Numbered from the stretch's first letter, positions 17,883 to 25,574 are shown. The stretch: 41,232 bases of DNA from an uncultured Candidatus Poseidoniales archaeon (GCA_964516645.1 CAZEXE010000004.1:1-41232); one strand, 5' to 3'. Program-made: numbers and translations. Notes: a model not told the origin generated them from the letters alone.

Positions 17883-18560
17883 ATGCAAGCGTGGACAGAA
17901 GGTGAAAGATTGCACCTTGGGGCTGAAGCTGAAGTGATTTCAGGGTCTTGGCATGGACGTTCCGCGATATTGAAAAAGCGCAAACCAAGGGGCTGGAGAC
18001 ATCCTGATTTGGATGCAAGTCTTACCCGGAAACGTATGATTAATGAAATCAAACTGACGATTTGGTTGGCTCGTAAAGGGGCGCCTGTTCCTGCAATTTG
18101 GGATGTTGACATAGAAGAGGCCACCATTATCATGGAAAAAATCGAAGGTAGGCCCCTAATCGAAATTTTGCATTCCAATGAACACGATGAAGAATTACTA
18201 ATCAAAGTTGGAAAAGCAATACGAGAATTGCACCGTAATGCAGTTAATCATGGAGATTTGTCAACAAATAATATTCTGATCAACAAACAAAGAGAGGCTA
18301 TACTAATCGATTTAGGACTGGCAACTAGAGAATATGAATTAGAAGGATTTGGAATCGATTTGCATGTACTTCATGAAATTCTAAGAGCAAGTCACCCTGA
18401 TGTAAAGGGTGCAATGGATTTAGTTCTCAAAGGCTATCTTACATTGGATGAGGAATTAGGTGAACCCGAAGCAGCACCGGGTGGTATGCCTCCAAAAGCA
18501 GTAGATGTTGTCAAAAGATTAGAGCAAGTCATGAAGCGAGTTCGCTATCATGGTGGCTAG
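17883..18560 (+). CDS. bud32: KEOPS complex kinase Bud32
   Basis: GAEA loop, K..WRHPDLD..L, HGDLSTNN, IDLGL, DLHVL. Confidence 0.92.
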   Translation: MQAWTEGERLHLGAEAEVISGSWHGRSAILKKRKPRGWRHPDLDASLTRKRMINEIKLTIWLARKGAPVPAIWDVDIEEATIIMEKIEGRPLIEILHSNEHDEELLIKVGKAIRELHRNAVNHGDLSTNNILINKQREAILIDLGLATREYELEGFGIDLHVLHEILRASHPDVKGAMDLVLKGYLTLDEELGEPEAAPGGMPPKAVDVVKRLEQVMKRVRYHGG

Positions 18561-20613
18561 GTTCATTCGCTTCTTTTTGCCTTTGCATGATGTGAATGAA
18601 TGCCAGAGATATGAATAATATCACTCCGAATTTTAGCACATTGGAAGCATAAGGTTGTAGAGAAGGTTCTTTCGGTTGAACTTCTACACTGATGTCCCCT
18701 TCACTATTCATTTGCTGATACACATAATGGTCTTCCAATACCATTGGTGCCCATTGATCTAATTCATCTGCAGTCAACGGTTTTGTCAGATTTGTTGAAA
18801 GGTCATGAATGTATATTTCTCTGTCTGAATACTTCTCAGTAGCATTCAATGGGTCGATTTCAGTATACGCTGAATACATCAGAATCCCATGTCCTAAATG
18901 AGGGTCATACGCAGCAAATTTGTGGTCGGAAACAATCTTGCTTTCACCAGTTATAGTATCGAGTAGTATCAATCTTGAAGTTGCATTAACATCGATTGTT
19001 GCTGCAAGTTTGTCTTTTGAAATAGATATGTCTGTAATAGTTGCATTCTCTAAATCTACATTGAATCCTTCCTGAATAAGAATCTCGTCTTCTCCGGGAT
19101 CAGCAGTAGCATTTACTTCTATCGAAATCAATCCTTCACCATCTGCGATTCCAAGCTGAATGATGTCGGGATTGCTTGCAAACACCATTGCAATTTGACC
19201 ATTAGATGATTCAAACAAAATAATCGAATCACCTTGAACTGCATTAGGTCCTGTTTTCTCCATACCATCGAATGACAAATATCTGACTTGCCCATTCTCT
19301 AATACTGCAAAACAATCTTCTGACACAATTACTACATCGGTTGGTTCTTGAACTTCGATTGTGGTTTTGGCCTTGTCTGGATTATTCAAATCGATAACCA
19401 TCAATGTTGACTGATTAGCCATAACTAACATGTCTCCTTGAACATCATATGTTGAATTAGAATCCATTAACGGCTGGAATACATCGATTTCTGATTCTAA
19501 ATCGGATAAATCGTGAACTACCACCAAAGCAGATTCTCCTCTATCATCCAAAGTAATCAGCCATCCATCTGCCGCTTCCACGCCAACAGGTGCATCCACC
19601 CCCCCCGCGGGTATCGATTGATGAGTCAAATCCCAGGTGATAACTCCGGCTACCACAATCAATATCGCAGTCAAGATTGCCCCTGTTTCTTTGCTGGTCG
19701 GTTTAGCAAATCTTGTAACTTGTTGTACTGTATTTGATTTGATTACTTTGAATGCCCTACTGGGATTAGTCAACAAGGTAACCAAGCGAGCATTGATTGT
19801 TCGCTCATCAAGAATTCTCCAAAACGGATCTGCCATCTTGTTTGCAATATTTACCGCCACCGCTGCTACAATCATACCTCCGATGATATCCATAAACCAA
19901 TGAATACCAAGGTAAAGGATACAAAATGCAGTTAGCAAAATGAAGCCAAAGAGGATTCGGCGATAAACAATCCATCGCCCATCTGTATCGAATCTCAACA
20001 AACAAAGCCAAACAGCAAACGGGAATGCGATATGTAGACTTGGCATACCATTTGTCAGAGGATCGATTCGATGGAACCAATCATTAATTTCAGGTGTGTG
20101 ATTATAGGCCAAAGTTTCCATTCCGGGGATGTAGTTTCCTGTTACATGAACATTGAAGAACAAATAGAATGGGATTGCGAGAACATAAACCCAAAAAATG
20201 GCTAGACTGATTCTGTCAGCCATGTATCTATCATCGAAGTATGCGAAATAGAACACTGACACATAACAGATAACCATGAATCCAACTACATAGAAGTGCG
20301 TCAAGAAAGCGGTTAGCCAATCTGCCATGAAGGTCTCTTGAACCCACAGTGCCATGTCGCCTTCAATAGCATATATCCATGGAGTCATATTGAGCATTCC
20401 ATCAGTATTCGCCATGAGAATACGATCTACTTCATCCAAGAAATCCTTGGCGTTGTATATGATTAGAACGATTCCAATGTGTAGCCAATATCTACGAATA
20501 AAGTCGATGAAACCATGCATAGTCACCTTTGCCCAAGGCGGTTTAATCAGGGGCATTAGCAATACACCGATTGCCAATGCAGAAATCAACCAAGTAAGAT
20601 ATACACCATCCAT
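18529..20613 (-). CDS. PAP2-superfamily (AUR1/IPC-synthase-like) membrane enzyme fused to a C-terminal beta-rich extracytoplasmic domain
   Basis: GMPSLH and LGIHWFMDIIGG catalytic motifs, followed by a TM helix, about 320 aa of acidic beta-repeat-like sequence (EIYIHDLSTNLTKPLT..DQWAP) and a final TM helix. GGAGGT SD upstream. Confidence 0.8.
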   Translation of the reverse strand: MDGVYLTWLISALAIGVLLMPLIKPPWAKVTMHGFIDFIRRYWLHIGIVLIIYNAKDFLDEVDRILMANTDGMLNMTPWIYAIEGDMALWVQETFMADWLTAFLTHFYVVGFMVICYVSVFYFAYFDDRYMADRISLAIFWVYVLAIPFYLFFNVHVTGNYIPGMETLAYNHTPEINDWFHRIDPLTNGMPSLHIAFPFAVWLCLLRFDTDGRWIVYRRILFGFILLTAFCILYLGIHWFMDIIGGMIVAAVAVNIANKMADPFWRILDERTINARLVTLLTNPSRAFKVIKSNTVQQVTRFAKPTSKETGAILTAILIVVAGVITWDLTHQSIPAGGVDAPVGVEAADGWLITLDDRGESALVVVHDLSDLESEIDVFQPLMDSNSTYDVQGDMLVMANQSTLMVIDLNNPDKAKTTIEVQEPTDVVIVSEDCFAVLENGQVRYLSFDGMEKTGPNAVQGDSIILFESSNGQIAMVFASNPDIIQLGIADGEGLISIEVNATADPGEDEILIQEGFNVDLENATITDISISKDKLAATIDVNATSRLILLDTITGESKIVSDHKFAAYDPHLGHGILMYSAYTEIDPLNATEKYSDREIYIHDLSTNLTKPLTADELDQWAPMVLEDHYVYQQMNSEGDISVEVQPKEPSLQPYASNVLKFGVILFISLAFIHIMQRQKEANEPSHHDSELAS

Positions 20614-20692: not shown

Positions 20693-21040
20693 TTACCATG
20701 CTCCGTGAACATACGTCTTACCATTATCAGGGTCTTGTTTTTCTCCTAGACGCCAAATCCTCTCGAATCTGTGAATTCCTGATGAACAACCATTGGTCCA
20801 TTCAAATGCTAATGCATAATTTCCTACCGGCCTAACCGTTGGCTTTTCTTTGGGCAAATTTTCCACATTTCGACGTAATATCAATGAAGATTCATCGTCA
20901 TTCCTTTGCGGCCCACATTTTGCACAAGGGCATGCATGGCGTAAATCATCGTAAGTAATCTCATGCTCAGTACCATCCGACCAAGTCAGATGTATGTCCA
21001 ATTCTCTTCGCTCTAAGCGCTTTAACTCAGGGGTGCTCAT
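20693..21040 (-). CDS. DUF971 / GBBH-like N-terminal domain protein
   Basis: LTWSDG, LRHACPCAKC, PVGNYAL.FEW..GCSSGIH. ATG 21040 removes the overlap with mrp. Confidence 0.85.
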   Translation of the reverse strand: MSTPELKRLERRELDIHLTWSDGTEHEITYDDLRHACPCAKCGPQRNDDESSLILRRNVENLPKEKPTVRPVGNYALAFEWTNGCSSGIHRFERIWRLGEKQDPDNGKTYVHGAW

Positions 21041-21050
21041 CGATTTTCCC

Positions 21051-22055
21051 TCAAATGATTTCAAGTTCGCTACCTGATGAACCCGATTCAACCTTCGATT
21101 GTATTTTAGCAACCACTTCAGCGAAGGCTTGGGAGGCTTGACCCTCAGGTTCCGATACAATTCGATGAACTCCATCATCTCCACCTCTTACGAAGCCGGG
21201 GTCGAAAGGAAGTTTACCCAAGAAGGGGACACCAAACTCTTCTGCTGTCTTTTCTCCTCCACCCGCTTTGAAAATATCTAGAGTCCCCGCCCAGTGCCCA
21301 TCATCATCAGCAGTCACATGAATTGTTTTTCCGCCCGGTGCGGCCAGTTCAATTTCAGTCCCAGATGGGGCTTTGCCTCTAACTGTATAACCACTCATAT
21401 TCTCGATTACACCGATGACATCAACCTTCAATGAATTTGCGAAAGTAATCGATTTACGAGAATCAAGGAGCGCAACATCTTGAGGCGTGGTTACTATTAC
21501 CATACCGTCAATGTCTGGCAAATTCTGAGCCACAGTCAATGGCTCATCAGAAGTACCAGGTGGGAAATCGATAATGAGGTAATCCAATTCTCCCCAATCT
21601 ACATCGCCAATAAATTGTTGAATTGCTCCAAGTTTGATTGGTCCTCGCCAAACAACAGGTGTGTCTTCATCTTCTAGCAAGAATGCCATGGAGATCACCT
21701 TGACTCCTAAGTGGCCCTGCGCTGGATGAATTCTACCGTCTTCTACATTCAAACGACGGCCACCGAGTCCCATCATCTTTGGAACATTTGGCCCGGTAAT
21801 ATCTATGTCCAGTAATCCAACTTTCAGACCTTGTTGGGCCAATGAAAGAGCTAAACCAGTTGCTACAGTTGATTTGCCAACGCCACCTTTTCCAGATAGT
21901 ACCATTATTTTGTGTTTAATCGCTTTACCCATCTCTGAAATAGCCATCTTACGCTTCATTTGGTTATACGCTGCTTCCATCTTTTTCTGCTCTTCAGGAG
22001 AAGGGCCAGTTGGGGCATCGCCGGGGTTGTTTACCTTGACAGGAGAATCAGCCAT
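21051..22055 (-). CDS. mrp: Mrp/ApbC/Nbp35 family P-loop ATPase (atypical, cysteine-free)
   Basis: SGKGGVGKST, DIDITGP, VVWRGP, DWGELDYLIIDFPPGTSD, VTTPQ, IENMS; the CxxC motif is absent. Confidence 0.92.
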   Translation of the reverse strand: MADSPVKVNNPGDAPTGPSPEEQKKMEAAYNQMKRKMAISEMGKAIKHKIMVLSGKGGVGKSTVATGLALSLAQQGLKVGLLDIDITGPNVPKMMGLGGRRLNVEDGRIHPAQGHLGVKVISMAFLLEDEDTPVVWRGPIKLGAIQQFIGDVDWGELDYLIIDFPPGTSDEPLTVAQNLPDIDGMVIVTTPQDVALLDSRKSITFANSLKVDVIGVIENMSGYTVRGKAPSGTEIELAAPGGKTIHVTADDDGHWAGTLDIFKAGGGEKTAEEFGVPFLGKLPFDPGFVRGGDDGVHRIVSEPEGQASQAFAEVVAKIQSKVESGSSGSELEII

Positions 22056-22386
22056 TGGACGAAGGGGCGGGTGTGCCATACTTCAACCCTTTTTCAGTTC
22101 CATATTGCAAAATAATTGCCATACAGACCCACAGAATGATGTTCCAATCAAAGGACATTTCTGCATATGCCCAGCCCAATCCAGCACTCAAAGCGATTAC
22201 TGGGAACCTTGCATGGCGGGCGTCTCCCTTCAGTAAATGAAGGCAAAAACCTGCAAACATTGTTTGCAATGTGATAATTACCGCAACAATTCTGAAAAGA
22301 TGGTCAAAATCATTTGCTGCGGCAATAATATGAATCACAAATAAAAATGAAAATATGGCCGTATAGGCTGATATTGACTTCCACAT
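22048..22386 (-). CDS. Small hypothetical membrane protein (about 4 TM)
   Basis: 112-aa hydrophobic ORF overlapping the mrp start by 8 nt. Confidence 0.6.
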   Translation of the reverse strand: MWKSISAYTAIFSFLFVIHIIAAANDFDHLFRIVAVIITLQTMFAGFCLHLLKGDARHARFPVIALSAGLGWAYAEMSFDWNIILWVCMAIILQYGTEKGLKYGTPAPSSNG

Positions 22387-22439
22387 CTATTGAGGCTAGA
22401 TGCCATTGGTTCATATGTCTCTTCTGTGCACACCACACC

Positions 22440-22799
22440 ATGCGCCTATTATTCGTCTGTGTTGGAAATTCCTGTCGCTCGCAAATGGCAGAAGGAATTG
22501 CAAGGAGTCTTGGCCATGATGCTACCAGTGCGGGAACCCACCCTGCATCCCAAGTTAGTGCCAATGCTTTGAAAGTTCTTGAATCGAGAGATATTAACAC
22601 CGATGGACTATTTCCAAAACAAGTGAATGATATTGATTGGCAATCTTTTGACATGATTATTTCGATGGGGTGTGGAGTAAGTTGTCCAATGATTCGCATA
22701 GACCAAGATTGGGCTTTAGAAGACCCATATGGACAGACGCTTGATGCATTCGAAGCATGTGCTAAAATCATTGAAGAGAATATCAGAAATTTGAATTGA
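22440..22799 (+). CDS. arsC: Arsenate reductase / LMW protein-tyrosine-phosphatase family
   Basis: CVGNSCRSQMAEG P-loop, SAGT, MGCGVSCP, W..EDP. Confidence 0.85.
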   Translation: MRLLFVCVGNSCRSQMAEGIARSLGHDATSAGTHPASQVSANALKVLESRDINTDGLFPKQVNDIDWQSFDMIISMGCGVSCPMIRIDQDWALEDPYGQTLDAFEACAKIIEENIRNLN

Positions 22800-23246
22800 T
22801 TATTCTCCGATACTTAGCAGTTCTGCGCCTTGAGTGACTTGATCTCCCACTACATAGTGAATCGCTTCTACAACTCCATCACTGCCTGCGACGATTTTAT
22901 GCTCCATTTTCATCGCTTCCATAACCATCAATACATCTCCAACACTAACCGTTTGACCTTCGGTTACATGGACTTCGAGAATCTTACCAGGCATGGGTGC
23001 TGAAAGTCCACCATCATCATCTGAAGATGTTGCTCCAGCCTCTATGATTTCGTACTGAAGTGTGTGTCCCATCACATGTATCCACCAAACATCAACAACT
23101 TTTGTTGCTACGGCTTTGTGTTTTCTTCCATCAATTTCCAACCACAATTCTTGACCGGTGTGCACAACCATTCCCTCGTGAATAAAGGATGTGCCATCAC
23201 GAATAGCCTCGATTTCGATGCGCCCAGAAGAGGTCTTGAATTCCAT
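22800..23246 (-). CDS. Biotin carboxyl carrier subunit of an acyl-CoA carboxylase
   Basis: APMPG and EAMKME biotinylation motif; 1-nt overlap with the biotin carboxylase gene. Confidence 0.92.
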   Translation of the reverse strand: MEFKTSSGRIEIEAIRDGTSFIHEGMVVHTGQELWLEIDGRKHKAVATKVVDVWWIHVMGHTLQYEIIEAGATSSDDDGGLSAPMPGKILEVHVTEGQTVSVGDVLMVMEAMKMEHKIVAGSDGVVEAIHYVVGDQVTQGAELLSIGE

Positions 23247-24733
23247 CAGGGGAACCTCCTATTGATTGTAGAGAAAGGTGATGGCAAGACTGTATCTGTG
23301 CCAGTTGGCATAACAACTCTGCCATGGTTGGTAGATTCACATGCAGCAGCGAGTAGGAGTCCTGCATCGCTAACCATTGAATCCAAATCAGGCTTCCACC
23401 CCTCTGGCCACAACCTGTCAATCATGTCTGTCGTAGTCCAACCATCGACAACATCGGGGTGATTGCACAGTTCTCTCAAGAACCTAACATTCGTGGTGCA
23501 ACCTAGCACAACAAAATCATCTAATGCTCTACCCATTCGCTGCAGGGCCTCGTCTCTAGAAGGAGCCCAAACGATTAATTTGGCTAGCATCGGGTCGTAA
23601 TCTGGAGTTACTGCATCTCCTTCACGTACACCTGTGTCCAAACGGACACCTGGTCCAGACGGAGCGATAAATCGTTTCAATTCTCCAATAGCAGGAAGGA
23701 AATTATTTGCTGGGTCCTCTGCATATAATCGAACTTCAATCGCATGCCCTCTCATATTCAGTGAACCGCAACTCATCGCTTCTCCACCAGCTATTCTCAA
23801 TTGCTCTCGCACCAAATCAACACCAGTTACCATCTCGGTGACAGGATGTTCGACCTGAATTCTAGTATTCATTTCCAAGAAAAAGAACTCACCGGTTGGA
23901 GTGACGAGAAACTCTACAGTTCCCGCTCCTTCGTAATCTACTGCCCTTGCTGCATCACATGCTGCCTCTCCCATCGCTTCTCGCAATTCGGAATCTAAGG
24001 CAACACTTGGAGATTCTTCGAAAACTTTCTGATGTCTTCTCTGAATACTACATTCTCTCTCTCCAAGATGAATAGTACGACCAAACTTATCAGCCAAAAC
24101 TTGGATTTCGATATGGCGGCTTCCAGTCAGTAATCTCTCGATGTAGATTCTATCATCGCCGAAGGCATTGAGCGCTTCTCTCATCGCTGCTTTGGCTTCA
24201 CTTTCAAGATCCTCTTGTTTGTGAACTGCACGCATACCTTTACCACCACCGCCAGCGGTGGCTTTGAGCAAAAGTGGATATCCGACTGAAGGCGCTGCTT
24301 CGAGAACTTCATCAAGACCTCCAGAAACTTCTTCTCCAGGAATAACAGGCACTCCGGCCTGTTTCATAGTGATTCGAGCGGTCATTTTGTCTCCCATCTT
24401 TGTTATCGCTTCGGGTGAAGGGCCGACCCAAATTAATCCAGCATCCATCACTACTTGAGCAAAATCTGCTCGCTCGGAAAGGAATCCAAAACCGGGATGA
24501 ATTGAATCACAACCATTGGCGATTGCAATTTCCAAAATTTGCTCTTGATTCAGGTATGTCTCAGCTAATCCTTCTCCCTCGAGTTCAATCGCTATATCTG
24601 CAAGTTCGGTGAATAATGTCCCTGCATCATTAGCCGCATAAATTGCAACCCCTTCGATTTCTGCTTCTCGGCACGCTCGCAAAATACGGCATGCAATCTC
24701 ACCGCGATTTGCGACGAGAGTACGTTTGAGCAT
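23246..24733 (-). CDS. Biotin carboxylase subunit (methylcrotonyl-CoA carboxylase alpha, LiuD-like)
   Basis: ANRGEIA, HPGFGFLSE, GGGGKGMR, RECSIQRRHQK, EMNTRIQVEHPVTE, YDPMLAKL. Confidence 0.92.
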   Translation of the reverse strand: MLKRTLVANRGEIACRILRACREAEIEGVAIYAANDAGTLFTELADIAIELEGEGLAETYLNQEQILEIAIANGCDSIHPGFGFLSERADFAQVVMDAGLIWVGPSPEAITKMGDKMTARITMKQAGVPVIPGEEVSGGLDEVLEAAPSVGYPLLLKATAGGGGKGMRAVHKQEDLESEAKAAMREALNAFGDDRIYIERLLTGSRHIEIQVLADKFGRTIHLGERECSIQRRHQKVFEESPSVALDSELREAMGEAACDAARAVDYEGAGTVEFLVTPTGEFFFLEMNTRIQVEHPVTEMVTGVDLVREQLRIAGGEAMSCGSLNMRGHAIEVRLYAEDPANNFLPAIGELKRFIAPSGPGVRLDTGVREGDAVTPDYDPMLAKLIVWAPSRDEALQRMGRALDDFVVLGCTTNVRFLRELCNHPDVVDGWTTTDMIDRLWPEGWKPDLDSMVSDAGLLLAAACESTNHGRVVMPTGTDTVLPSPFSTINRRFP

Positions 24734-24737
24734 TGAA

Positions 24738-25574
24738 TCACTCCTCTGACTTCCAATTCGCATTTCGCTTTTCGAGAAAAGAAGTCAAACCTTCTTGGCC
24801 TTCGTCACTTCCACGCATTTTGCTTGTGAAATCTAGTGTCCAAAGGCGCAATGACTCATCATCGCCATCCCATCTATCGAATTCAAGTGTCAATTCCTTT
24901 GCAGCAGTTACTGCACATGGTCCTGTGGACAAGACTTCAGCGATTACTCCTGATTCATCTAATGAATCATCAACCGCATCAATCATTCCAATACGCAATG
25001 CTTCAGTTGTATCCATTCTTCCAGCCAACATTGCATGCCTGCGGAAATTAGCACTACCCATTCTTCGGTACACATACGGTCCAATCACTGCAGGTAGTAT
25101 TCCGAGTTTACCTTCAGACAATGCAATTTTCACTCCGGGCTTGCATATCACATGATCTAAGCATGCGATCAATCCAGCTCCACCACCTAAAGCAACTCCT
25201 TGGATTTTACCAACTGTGAAACATGGGTGTGACCACAAGCCGTTGAACAATGAATCGAGCCTTTCGGAATCCCTGCGATTTTCTTCAGGCGTATTTGCGC
25301 CAGCGTCTCGCATCATATTGATATCAGCGCCAGCACAGAAGTGCTTGCCTTCTCCTGACAATACTAGGACTCGAAGATATGGTGTACCGTCATCAGAAGT
25401 CAATTTGCCAACCTGTCCCACAGAATTCTGTGCAGTCCAAGAGAATACCTCGATTAATTCGGTTATCATCTGCACATTGAAGGCATTATATTTGTCAGGA
25501 CGGGCAAGGTTTACCCTTGCTATACATCCATCGATTTTCAATTGAATAAGTGAAGTTGTAGGTTGATTGTTCAT
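24738..25574 (-). CDS. liuC: Methylglutaconyl-CoA hydratase (LiuC-like crotonase)
   Basis: FCAGADINMM, GGGAGL, LSEGKLGILPAVIGPYV; lies between the two MCC subunits. Confidence 0.8.
   Translation of the reverse strand: MNNQPTTSLIQLKIDGCIARVNLARPDKYNAFNVQMITELIEVFSWTAQNSVGQVGKLTSDDGTPYLRVLVLSGEGKHFCAGADINMMRDAGANTPEENRRDSERLDSLFNGLWSHPCFTVGKIQGVALGGGAGLIACLDHVICKPGVKIALSEGKLGILPAVIGPYVYRRMGSANFRRHAMLAGRMDTTEALRIGMIDAVDDSLDESGVIAEVLSTGPCAVTAAKELTLEFDRWDGDDESLRLWTLDFTSKMRGSDEGQEGLTSFLEKRNANWKSEE

Follow-up and report, generated by a model that had tools for sequence, protein, structure and literature searches.

Introduction

Mrp/NBP35-type P-loop ATPases, including Mrp, ApbC, NBP35, Cfd1 and Ind1, are taken to work through a labile [4Fe-4S] cluster that sits at the dimer axis, where a CxxC pair carries it. 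In the available text of PMC6345978, the CXXC of Mrp/NBP35 is described as binding a [4Fe-4S] cluster that bridges two monomers and as essential in vivo, and the deviant Walker A motif is defined as GKGGhGK[ST]. Family members without CxxC, or without any cysteine, are already known, HCF101 among them. Plastid HCF101 is a Mrp-type ATPase lacking the CXXC that still binds a transferable [4Fe-4S] cluster via other cysteines, one of them in its DUF59 domain, according to the portion of PMC2805927 open to us; the cysteines that it uses are C128, C347 and C419. HCF101 carries DUF59, Mrp and DUF971 in one polypeptide, an architecture traced to PVC bacteria in the accessible part of PMC7980591, which also ascribes to the DUF971 domain of HCF101 proteins a conserved CxCxxC and a role that is 'currently elusive'.

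Here we describe a Mrp from an uncultured Candidatus Poseidoniales archaeon that contains no cysteine and has a predicted beta module in the place of the CxxC hairpin. Like HCF101, it is tied to DUF971, with its CxCxxC, and to DUF59 (the HCF101 side of this comparison following PMC7980591 as far as its available text goes). In contrast to HCF101, its domain content is ParA only; the three-domain arrangement is absent, and DUF59, Mrp and DUF971 are separate genes in the Poseidoniales genome. HCF101-type loops are short and free of any beta insert, whereas the loop described here is long. We found no description, in open-access papers or preprints, of an entire order whose only Mrp has a folded part-Ig module instead of the loop.

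A cysteine-free Mrp with a conserved ATPase core

The gene lies in a window of 41,232 nt, by which we mean the whole stretch of DNA analysed (GCA_964516645.1 CAZEXE010000004.1:1-41232), and all coordinates are positions in that window unless a locus is named. An ORF of 342 aa on the minus strand (21051..22079) encodes a Mrp/NBP35-type P-loop ATPase, hereafter the window Mrp. Its start is probably M9, at 22055, because homologues begin MADSPV or MSDSPV; this gives a protein of 334 aa, and residue numbers follow that form unless marked. PF10609 (ParA/NUBPL) matches at E 2.4e-89, with 299.4 bits against a Pfam cut-off of 27.1, in two stretches that lie one on each side of the insert described below. 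The NCBIfam models MrpORP (NF041136; 321.4 against 450) and ApbC (NF008669; 207.3 against 348) both match strongly yet score below their equivalog cut-offs. In its own genome, a 1.77-Mb, 88%-complete assembly, no PF10609 gene besides the window Mrp passes the cut-off.

The deviant Walker A motif of the window Mrp, GKGGVGKS (21870..21893, minus strand), was read directly from the sequence and fits the GKGGhGK[ST] definition (PMC6345978, available text). In alignment A1, whose 96 rows include CxxC-bearing relatives, S54, K56, G57, G60 and K61 are invariant in every row, as are D83, D85, D163, P165, P166 and G167. Altogether 22 columns are invariant over the 96 rows, with Walker A and Walker B residues among them. 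Judged from this alignment, the nucleotide-binding core is intact.

The nearest solved relatives by sequence are Cfd1 (6g2g), ApbC (8zkc) and two Archaeoglobus structures (2ph1 and 3kb1), and the top structural matches by Foldseek are ApbC 8zkc, AF2382 2ph1 and Cfd1 6g2g. Over residues 50-232 the window Mrp is ~50% identical to Fe-S carrier Mrps. The core fold, the deviant Walker A, ENMSG and FKxGGG are common to the window Mrp and the Mrp/ApbC/NBP35/Cfd1/Ind1 proteins (8zkc, 6g2g, 2ph1, 3kb1); what sets the window Mrp apart is the absence of CxxC or any Cys, and a 38-residue beta module where these relatives have a 12-residue hairpin.

A beta insert replaces the CxxC hairpin

PDB homologues locate the difference. 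The structures 6g2g, 8zkc and 2ph1 align at query 53-232 and then again from ~267, and between the aligned blocks they have 7-10 residues, against ~34 in the window Mrp. Reverse-strand translation of 21279-21389 gives the 37-residue insert, YTVRGKAPSGTEIELAAPGGKTIHVTADDDGHWAGTL, which is flanked by ENMSG and DIFKAGGG and reaches 38 residues with its closing Asp (21276-21278).

We surveyed this loop in the 150 best 50%-identity cluster representatives from a 1.84-billion-protein library, among which a pattern search located the loop in 111. The loop is 12 residues long in 87 of these, and 85 combine a short loop with CxxC, the typical form being G-[FY]-x-C-P-x-C-G-x-x-x-D. A short loop without CxxC occurs in 17 of the 111, and long loops in only a few. 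In the window Mrp the loop still opens with G-[YF] and closes with D, and 38 residues, compared with 11-12 in relatives, lie in between. Since the 12-residue CxxC loop is the common form in relatives, the insert replaces the CxxC hairpin, for a net gain of 26 residues. Translation and homologue loops thus agree with the original prediction, which had put a 37-residue insert in the place of the Mrp CxxC loop.

The family's CXXC, the ligand of the bridging [4Fe-4S] cluster and its sole known binding site in these proteins, is absent from the window Mrp. Because the protein has no cysteine and its CxxC loop is replaced, its sequence is one that cannot hold a cluster in the known way.

Prediction of a homodimer from two copies with A1 scored 0.39 against a mark of 0.42 and gave no contacts, an outcome that speaks neither for nor against dimerisation or the placement of the insert. 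The Cfd1 structure paper reportedly describes an exposed bridging cluster. From homologues, we infer that the insert sits at the dimer axis, because the CxxC that it replaces bridges the two monomers in the family (PMC6345978, available text).

The insert is predicted as a four-strand module with a likeness to part of an adhesin-type Ig repeat

AlphaFold2 modelled the whole window Mrp from the 96-row alignment with a mean pLDDT of 90.6. The insert forms four strands in this model (223-228, 234-238, 244-248 and 254-259), at a block pLDDT of 94-96. Modelled alone, from a 53-row alignment, it gave the same four strands at a pLDDT of 95.9. The beta module that had been proposed from the DNA is therefore upheld by a four-strand model of an insert that is conserved in homologues, and far from being disordered the strands are predicted with confidence both in the whole protein and alone (pLDDT 94-97).

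A 38-column profile of the insert, A2, was searched against all PDB sequences. The best match was 7dm0_A, a 'Biofilm-associated surface protein' (E 3.2e-11), in which two repeats scored 24.7 bits each. It was followed by 6m3a_A, the 'Biofilm-associated surface protein' Bap-C1 of Staphylococcus aureus (E 6.1e-6), and by 4p99_A, the Marinomonas MpAFP RII tandem repeat (E 0.0079); beyond these three, nothing in the PDB fell below E 0.4. Pfam Big_6 (PF17936) exceeds its gathering score of 27.6 bits in the homologues P0052 (30.2) and P0105 (31.1), lies below it in three other homologues tested, and is found at E <= 0.01 in 32 of the 96 A1 members. The window Mrp itself has no Big_6 match at E <= 0.01 in Pfam. 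A Pfam search with the insert alone returned no Big match at E <= 10, the matches being chance-level ones to MDMPI_C and HrpB_C only. The NCBIfam model Ca_tandemer gave a sub-threshold match to the window Mrp (E 1.7e-4), scoring 21.9 bits where the cut-off is 50.

The extent of the likeness is limited. Matches cover positions 12-63 of the 83-position Big_6 profile at most and, in the ~86-residue Bap repeat, ~33 residues. With four strands in 37 residues, the insert falls short of a complete Big_6 domain of ~83 positions, and on these profile matches it is about half of a Big_6/Bap-type Ig domain, a part-domain rather than a full Ig module. Foldseek with the 38-residue insert model found no match at E <= 0.001. 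Its best geometric rows, none of them significant, were 7kmm, 6m3a, SiiE 2yn5 and 5irb, with an rmsd of 1.0-1.6 Å; these are adhesin Ig domains and esterase accessory domains. The insert model superposes on 6m3a with an rmsd of 1.6 Å over 33 residues, at a Foldseek E that is not significant for so short a query.

Comparison with Big-type families, which the original prediction had put forward as a check, thus yielded profile matches to Bap repeats, and to Big_6 in a third of the A1 members. Of the suggested likeness to Ig-like adhesin repeats, the Bap and Big_6 profile matches sustain a resemblance that stops at about half a domain. A relation in sequence between the insert and part of a Big_6/Bap-type Ig repeat is supported. 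The settings differ: Bap and Big_6 units are secreted tandem repeats, whereas the insert is cytoplasmic, single and inside an ATPase loop, with ~33 residues of sequence pattern in common with the Bap C-repeat (6m3a, 7dm0). A Big_6 search of the archaeon's own genome gave one sub-threshold match (contig 11, 20.2 bits) and no obvious donor domain.

The insert keeps its frame while its surface drifts

The close homologues of the window Mrp, taken as the 120 best matches in a search of 5.8 billion proteins, are all at least 75% identical to it and are named Poseidoniales or Marine Group II. The 38-residue version of the insert, with the closing Asp, recurs at constant length in 119 of the 120, so the possibility that it is unconserved falls away; the remaining one is a pattern mismatch. 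Cysteine is absent from 114 of the 120. Among 60 other Poseidoniales genomes, 58 have a full-length match that spans the insert, one each, at 60-87% identity, and the insert itself was read directly in 30 loci. The two Poseidoniales genomes of the 60 without a spanning match are G038, with a weak P-loop match only, and G039, with none. A single copy and near-universal presence in Poseidoniales argue for a needed function and against decay.

Several variants stand out. One homologue, P0122 (341 aa, 61% identical to the window Mrp), has a beta insert of 46 residues, lengthened by 8 behind its first strand. In two Poseidoniales genomes the Mrp match is broken by TGA (G003:C1:1777264-1778243 and G057:C14:25618-26616); the match in G003 consists of two overlapping pieces, which may reflect a frameshift or an assembly error.

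Across 51 insert-bearing rows, 38 of them Cys-free, the conserved positions trace out a frame. The glycines G227 and G253 never vary, every row has an aromatic residue at 255 (F in 38, W in 13), D250 persists in 46 rows and D260 in 44, and hydrophobic positions alternate along the insert. The remainder varies quickly. Among 29 Poseidoniaceae genes, mean identity is 54% in the insert against 91% in the rest of Mrp, and over the 406 pairs of these sequences pN is 0.316 in the insert against 0.067 elsewhere. Synonymous sites are saturated (pS ~0.77, with only 3 of the 406 pairs unsaturated), so dN/dS is not computable. In these alignments the frame of the insert is conserved while its surface drifts.

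The insert could be purely a brace, a longer hairpin that, once CxxC had been lost, substitutes for the cross-link given by the cluster, stabilising the dimer by cross-axis beta-sheet pairing and binding nothing, with any Fe-S role exercised via other surfaces. The conserved residues are frame residues only (G227, G253, the aromatic at 255, D250, D260 and the alternating hydrophobics), the insert is far more variable than the core, and modelled alone it is predicted to fold as a compact four-strand unit. A fast-drifting surface with mainly frame residues kept fits such a brace better than a specific docking surface. Yet the length is fixed at 38 across two archaeal groups (46-52% identical to the window Mrp), and distant DUF59-Mrp lineages also have, at this loop, beta modules with a similar pattern; fixed length and recurrence together suggest selection beyond filler. 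We rate a pure brace as rather unlikely, though the strongest of the alternatives to the reading favoured below.

The conserved acidic residues raise a second alternative, in which D250, D260 and the acidic positions 251-252 of the two inserts, or the histidines of the window Mrp, provide a site at the axis for Ca2+, Fe or a cluster. The persistence of D250 and D260 is consistent with such a site, as are the weak, below-cut-off match to Ca2+-stabilised adhesin repeats in NCBIfam and the match to the Ca-binding MpAFP RII repeats. The histidines, however, vary: His is found at position 246 in 1 of the 51 insert-bearing rows and at 254 in 3, and the window Mrp offers no Cys. The matched Ig repeats themselves have the D-x-x-G-aromatic turn as a structural signature, so its conservation needs no metal. 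A new metal or cluster site appears very improbable to us. Its specific form in the original prediction, a His/Asp site built on H..ADDDGH, is rejected, as the two histidines of the window Mrp are not conserved.

Some Poseidoniaceae (L007, L010, L018, L020, P0054 and P0061) have a lone Cys inside the insert, beside the conserved Asp (..ATCDDEG..), in a protein otherwise free of cysteine.

The insert occurs in a second archaeal family and similar modules in distant lineages

We sampled 300 further genomes of the phylum, and the statements here hold among the matches listed. Among those, matches span the insert only in Poseidoniales families and in f29, a second family of Thermoplasmatota; all others end at query 230-233. 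A spanning match is present in 10 of 10 f29 genomes, at 48-55% identity, and the f29 inserts are 37-38 residues long with the same pattern as in the window Mrp. A scan of species-representative genomes added 22 f29-like loci, titled uncultured Thermoplasmatota MAGs, of which 21 carry the insert.

The sister order MGIII (f4, of the same class) has a different arrangement. There, DUF59 (FeS_assembly_P), ParA and DUF971 are fused in one protein of 450-540 aa (L035-L040), and the Mrp loop is of the ordinary 12-residue kind. CxxC is present in 3 of the 4 f4 genomes read (G260, G247, G086 and G219); the loop of G260 has 12 residues and is Cys-free.

A quick maximum-likelihood tree of 96 rows, built with the insert columns removed and showing long branches, recovers clades for the Poseidoniales (38 rows, support 100) and for f29 (11 rows, support 99), which join, together with one long-branch CxxC row, at an SH-aLRT of 90. 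This topology is compatible with one origin of the insert in Poseidoniales and f29.

Two DUF59-Mrp proteins outside this group, P0170 and P0211, have beta-type inserts of 41 and 45 residues at the same loop. They sit in the other main clade, among CxxC rows, and the P0170 cluster is labelled a bacterial MAG. The starred branches of the tree force at least two changes of insert state, and the placement of P0170 and P0211 suggests a second, independent insertion or a module transfer. From sequence comparison, similar beta modules seem to have entered this loop on two or more occasions, in archaeal Mrps as well as in bacterial-type Mrps that bear DUF59. Another protein, P0189 (422 aa), has a 41-residue insert at this loop that looks helical and seems to have no relation to the beta module.

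A DUF971 gene adjoins Mrp in Poseidoniaceae

A DUF971 (GBBH-like_N) gene of 115 aa, counted from the Met at 21040, follows on the same strand (20693..21040, minus; PF06155, E 3.2e-15) and begins 10 nt past the Mrp stop codon. The protein has four cysteines, three in a CPCAKC motif (20915..20932, minus strand) and a fourth elsewhere. DUF971 is single-copy in 60 of 61 Poseidoniales genomes, the archaeon's own included. Of 30 loci examined, 29 show CPCA[KN]C. The gene lies directly downstream of Mrp in all 29 Poseidoniaceae loci. Among Poseidoniales genomes with both genes, the two adjoin in 0 of 2 for family f2 and 0 of 28 for f3, and in f29 DUF971 was not found in any of 5 genomes that are 90-94% complete. 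The N-terminal domain of gamma-butyrobetaine hydroxylase, which is homologous to DUF971, holds a structural zinc. By analogy, the DUF971 cysteines may simply hold structural zinc as well.

Just downstream of DUF971, the minus-strand ORF at 18529-20613 encodes a 694-aa protein that has a PAP2 phosphatase membrane domain (PF14378/PF01569) at its N terminus and whose long C-terminal region lacks a Pfam match. Upstream of Mrp, on the opposite strand, is a low-molecular-weight phosphatase/ArsC-type gene (22347-22799, plus; PF01451), and beside it, within 22800-24763 on the minus strand, two ORFs resemble by eye a biotinyl carrier (AMKME motif) and a biotin carboxylase.

Elsewhere, the genome encodes SufB/SufD, one A-type carrier and two Nfu-like genes. 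A stand-alone DUF59 gene adjoins SufB/SufD, on a contig other than that of Mrp. The f29 loci are high in GC and ORF calling is unreliable there; the neighbours of Mrp are mostly uninformative. At one locus the insert-bearing Mrp is followed, ~1.4 kb downstream, by an A-type carrier gene (L052:4842-5300, plus strand; PF01521, E 2.5e-18).

These gene contexts tie the window Mrp to Fe-S biogenesis, since DUF971 adjoins it, MGIII fuses DUF59, Mrp and DUF971, and its own genome has Suf, A-type and Nfu genes. A contrary reading is that the ATPase has left Fe-S biogenesis and uses its ATP dimer and beta surface for another task, such as metal delivery in the manner of HypB or positioning in the manner of MinD/ParA. 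Foldseek ranks HypB (5auo, 3vx3) just below ApbC and Cfd1, at E ~1e-20. HypB of Thermococcus kodakarensis (3vx3, 5auo) is a Mrp/MinD-family ATPase with a TM-score of 0.63-0.65 normalised by query; by the titles of its PDB entries it works with its partner HypA and nickel, which makes it a model for a partner-dependent Mrp. It differs from the window Mrp in serving hydrogenase maturation and lacking a beta insert. The presence of other Fe-S carriers in the archaeon's genome, and of the insert in f29, where no DUF971 was found, would also accord with such a change of function. Weighing against it, the sequence is closest to Fe-S carrier Mrps, with ~50% core identity compared with ~32% to HypB, the DUF971 operon is conserved in Poseidoniaceae, the three domains are fused in MGIII, and an A-type carrier gene accompanies Mrp at the f29 locus. 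On balance a neofunctionalised ATPase seems improbable to us, more so than a brace.

Discussion

The reading that we favour, with somewhat more confidence than doubt, is that the window Mrp is a Fe-S maturation ATPase with an intact core, whose insert bridges the dimer axis while the cluster is held by Cys-bearing partners. The protein would still dimerise on ATP like its relatives, so that its two beta modules would meet on the exposed two-fold axis, the usual place of the cluster. The paired modules may then stand in structurally for the cluster bridge and offer a surface for docking or gating. The window Mrp would still serve Fe-S protein maturation while carrying no cluster itself, and partners that bear cysteines would hold the cluster or metal in trans. 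For Poseidoniaceae, the probable partner would be the putatively co-transcribed DUF971 protein, with its CPCAxC and fourth Cys; outside that family, DUF59/SufT-like, A-type or Nfu-type carriers may fill the role. The resulting system would be a split, HCF101-like arrangement, for which HCF101, CXXC-less and cluster-binding, offers a precedent. The lack of adjacency in f2 and f3, and the f29 genomes without DUF971 (5 of 5), count against a general partnership with DUF971. A purely structural zinc on the DUF971 cysteines would likewise tell against the favoured reading, as does the fast drift of the insert surface.

A bolder form of this proposal is that half an Ig adhesin repeat of extracellular type was captured by the cluster-binding loop, and that on ATP two halves pair over the two-fold axis to complete a nucleotide-gated Ig-like sandwich that clamps or releases a Cys-bearing partner such as DUF971, with the Fe-S cluster wholly in trans. 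We regard it as a long shot.

A family taken to depend on a labile [4Fe-4S] at the dimer axis includes, in an abundant order of ocean archaea, a single and well-conserved Mrp that by its sequence is unable to work in that way, being Cys-free and having a module predicted to fold instead. If the favoured reading of a Fe-S maturation ATPase with its cluster in trans is right, it would represent a natural separation of the family's ATPase function from cluster ligation. The insert also shows plainly that part of an adhesin-type Ig repeat can be put to use inside the loop of a cytoplasmic enzyme. The DUF971 gene directly downstream in Poseidoniaceae amounts to a split HCF101, in which the role of DUF971 becomes testable with separate proteins. 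Repeated uptake of beta modules at this loop, if true, would be a recurrent solution, perhaps one that avoids an oxygen-exposed bridging cluster in aerobic, iron-poor waters.
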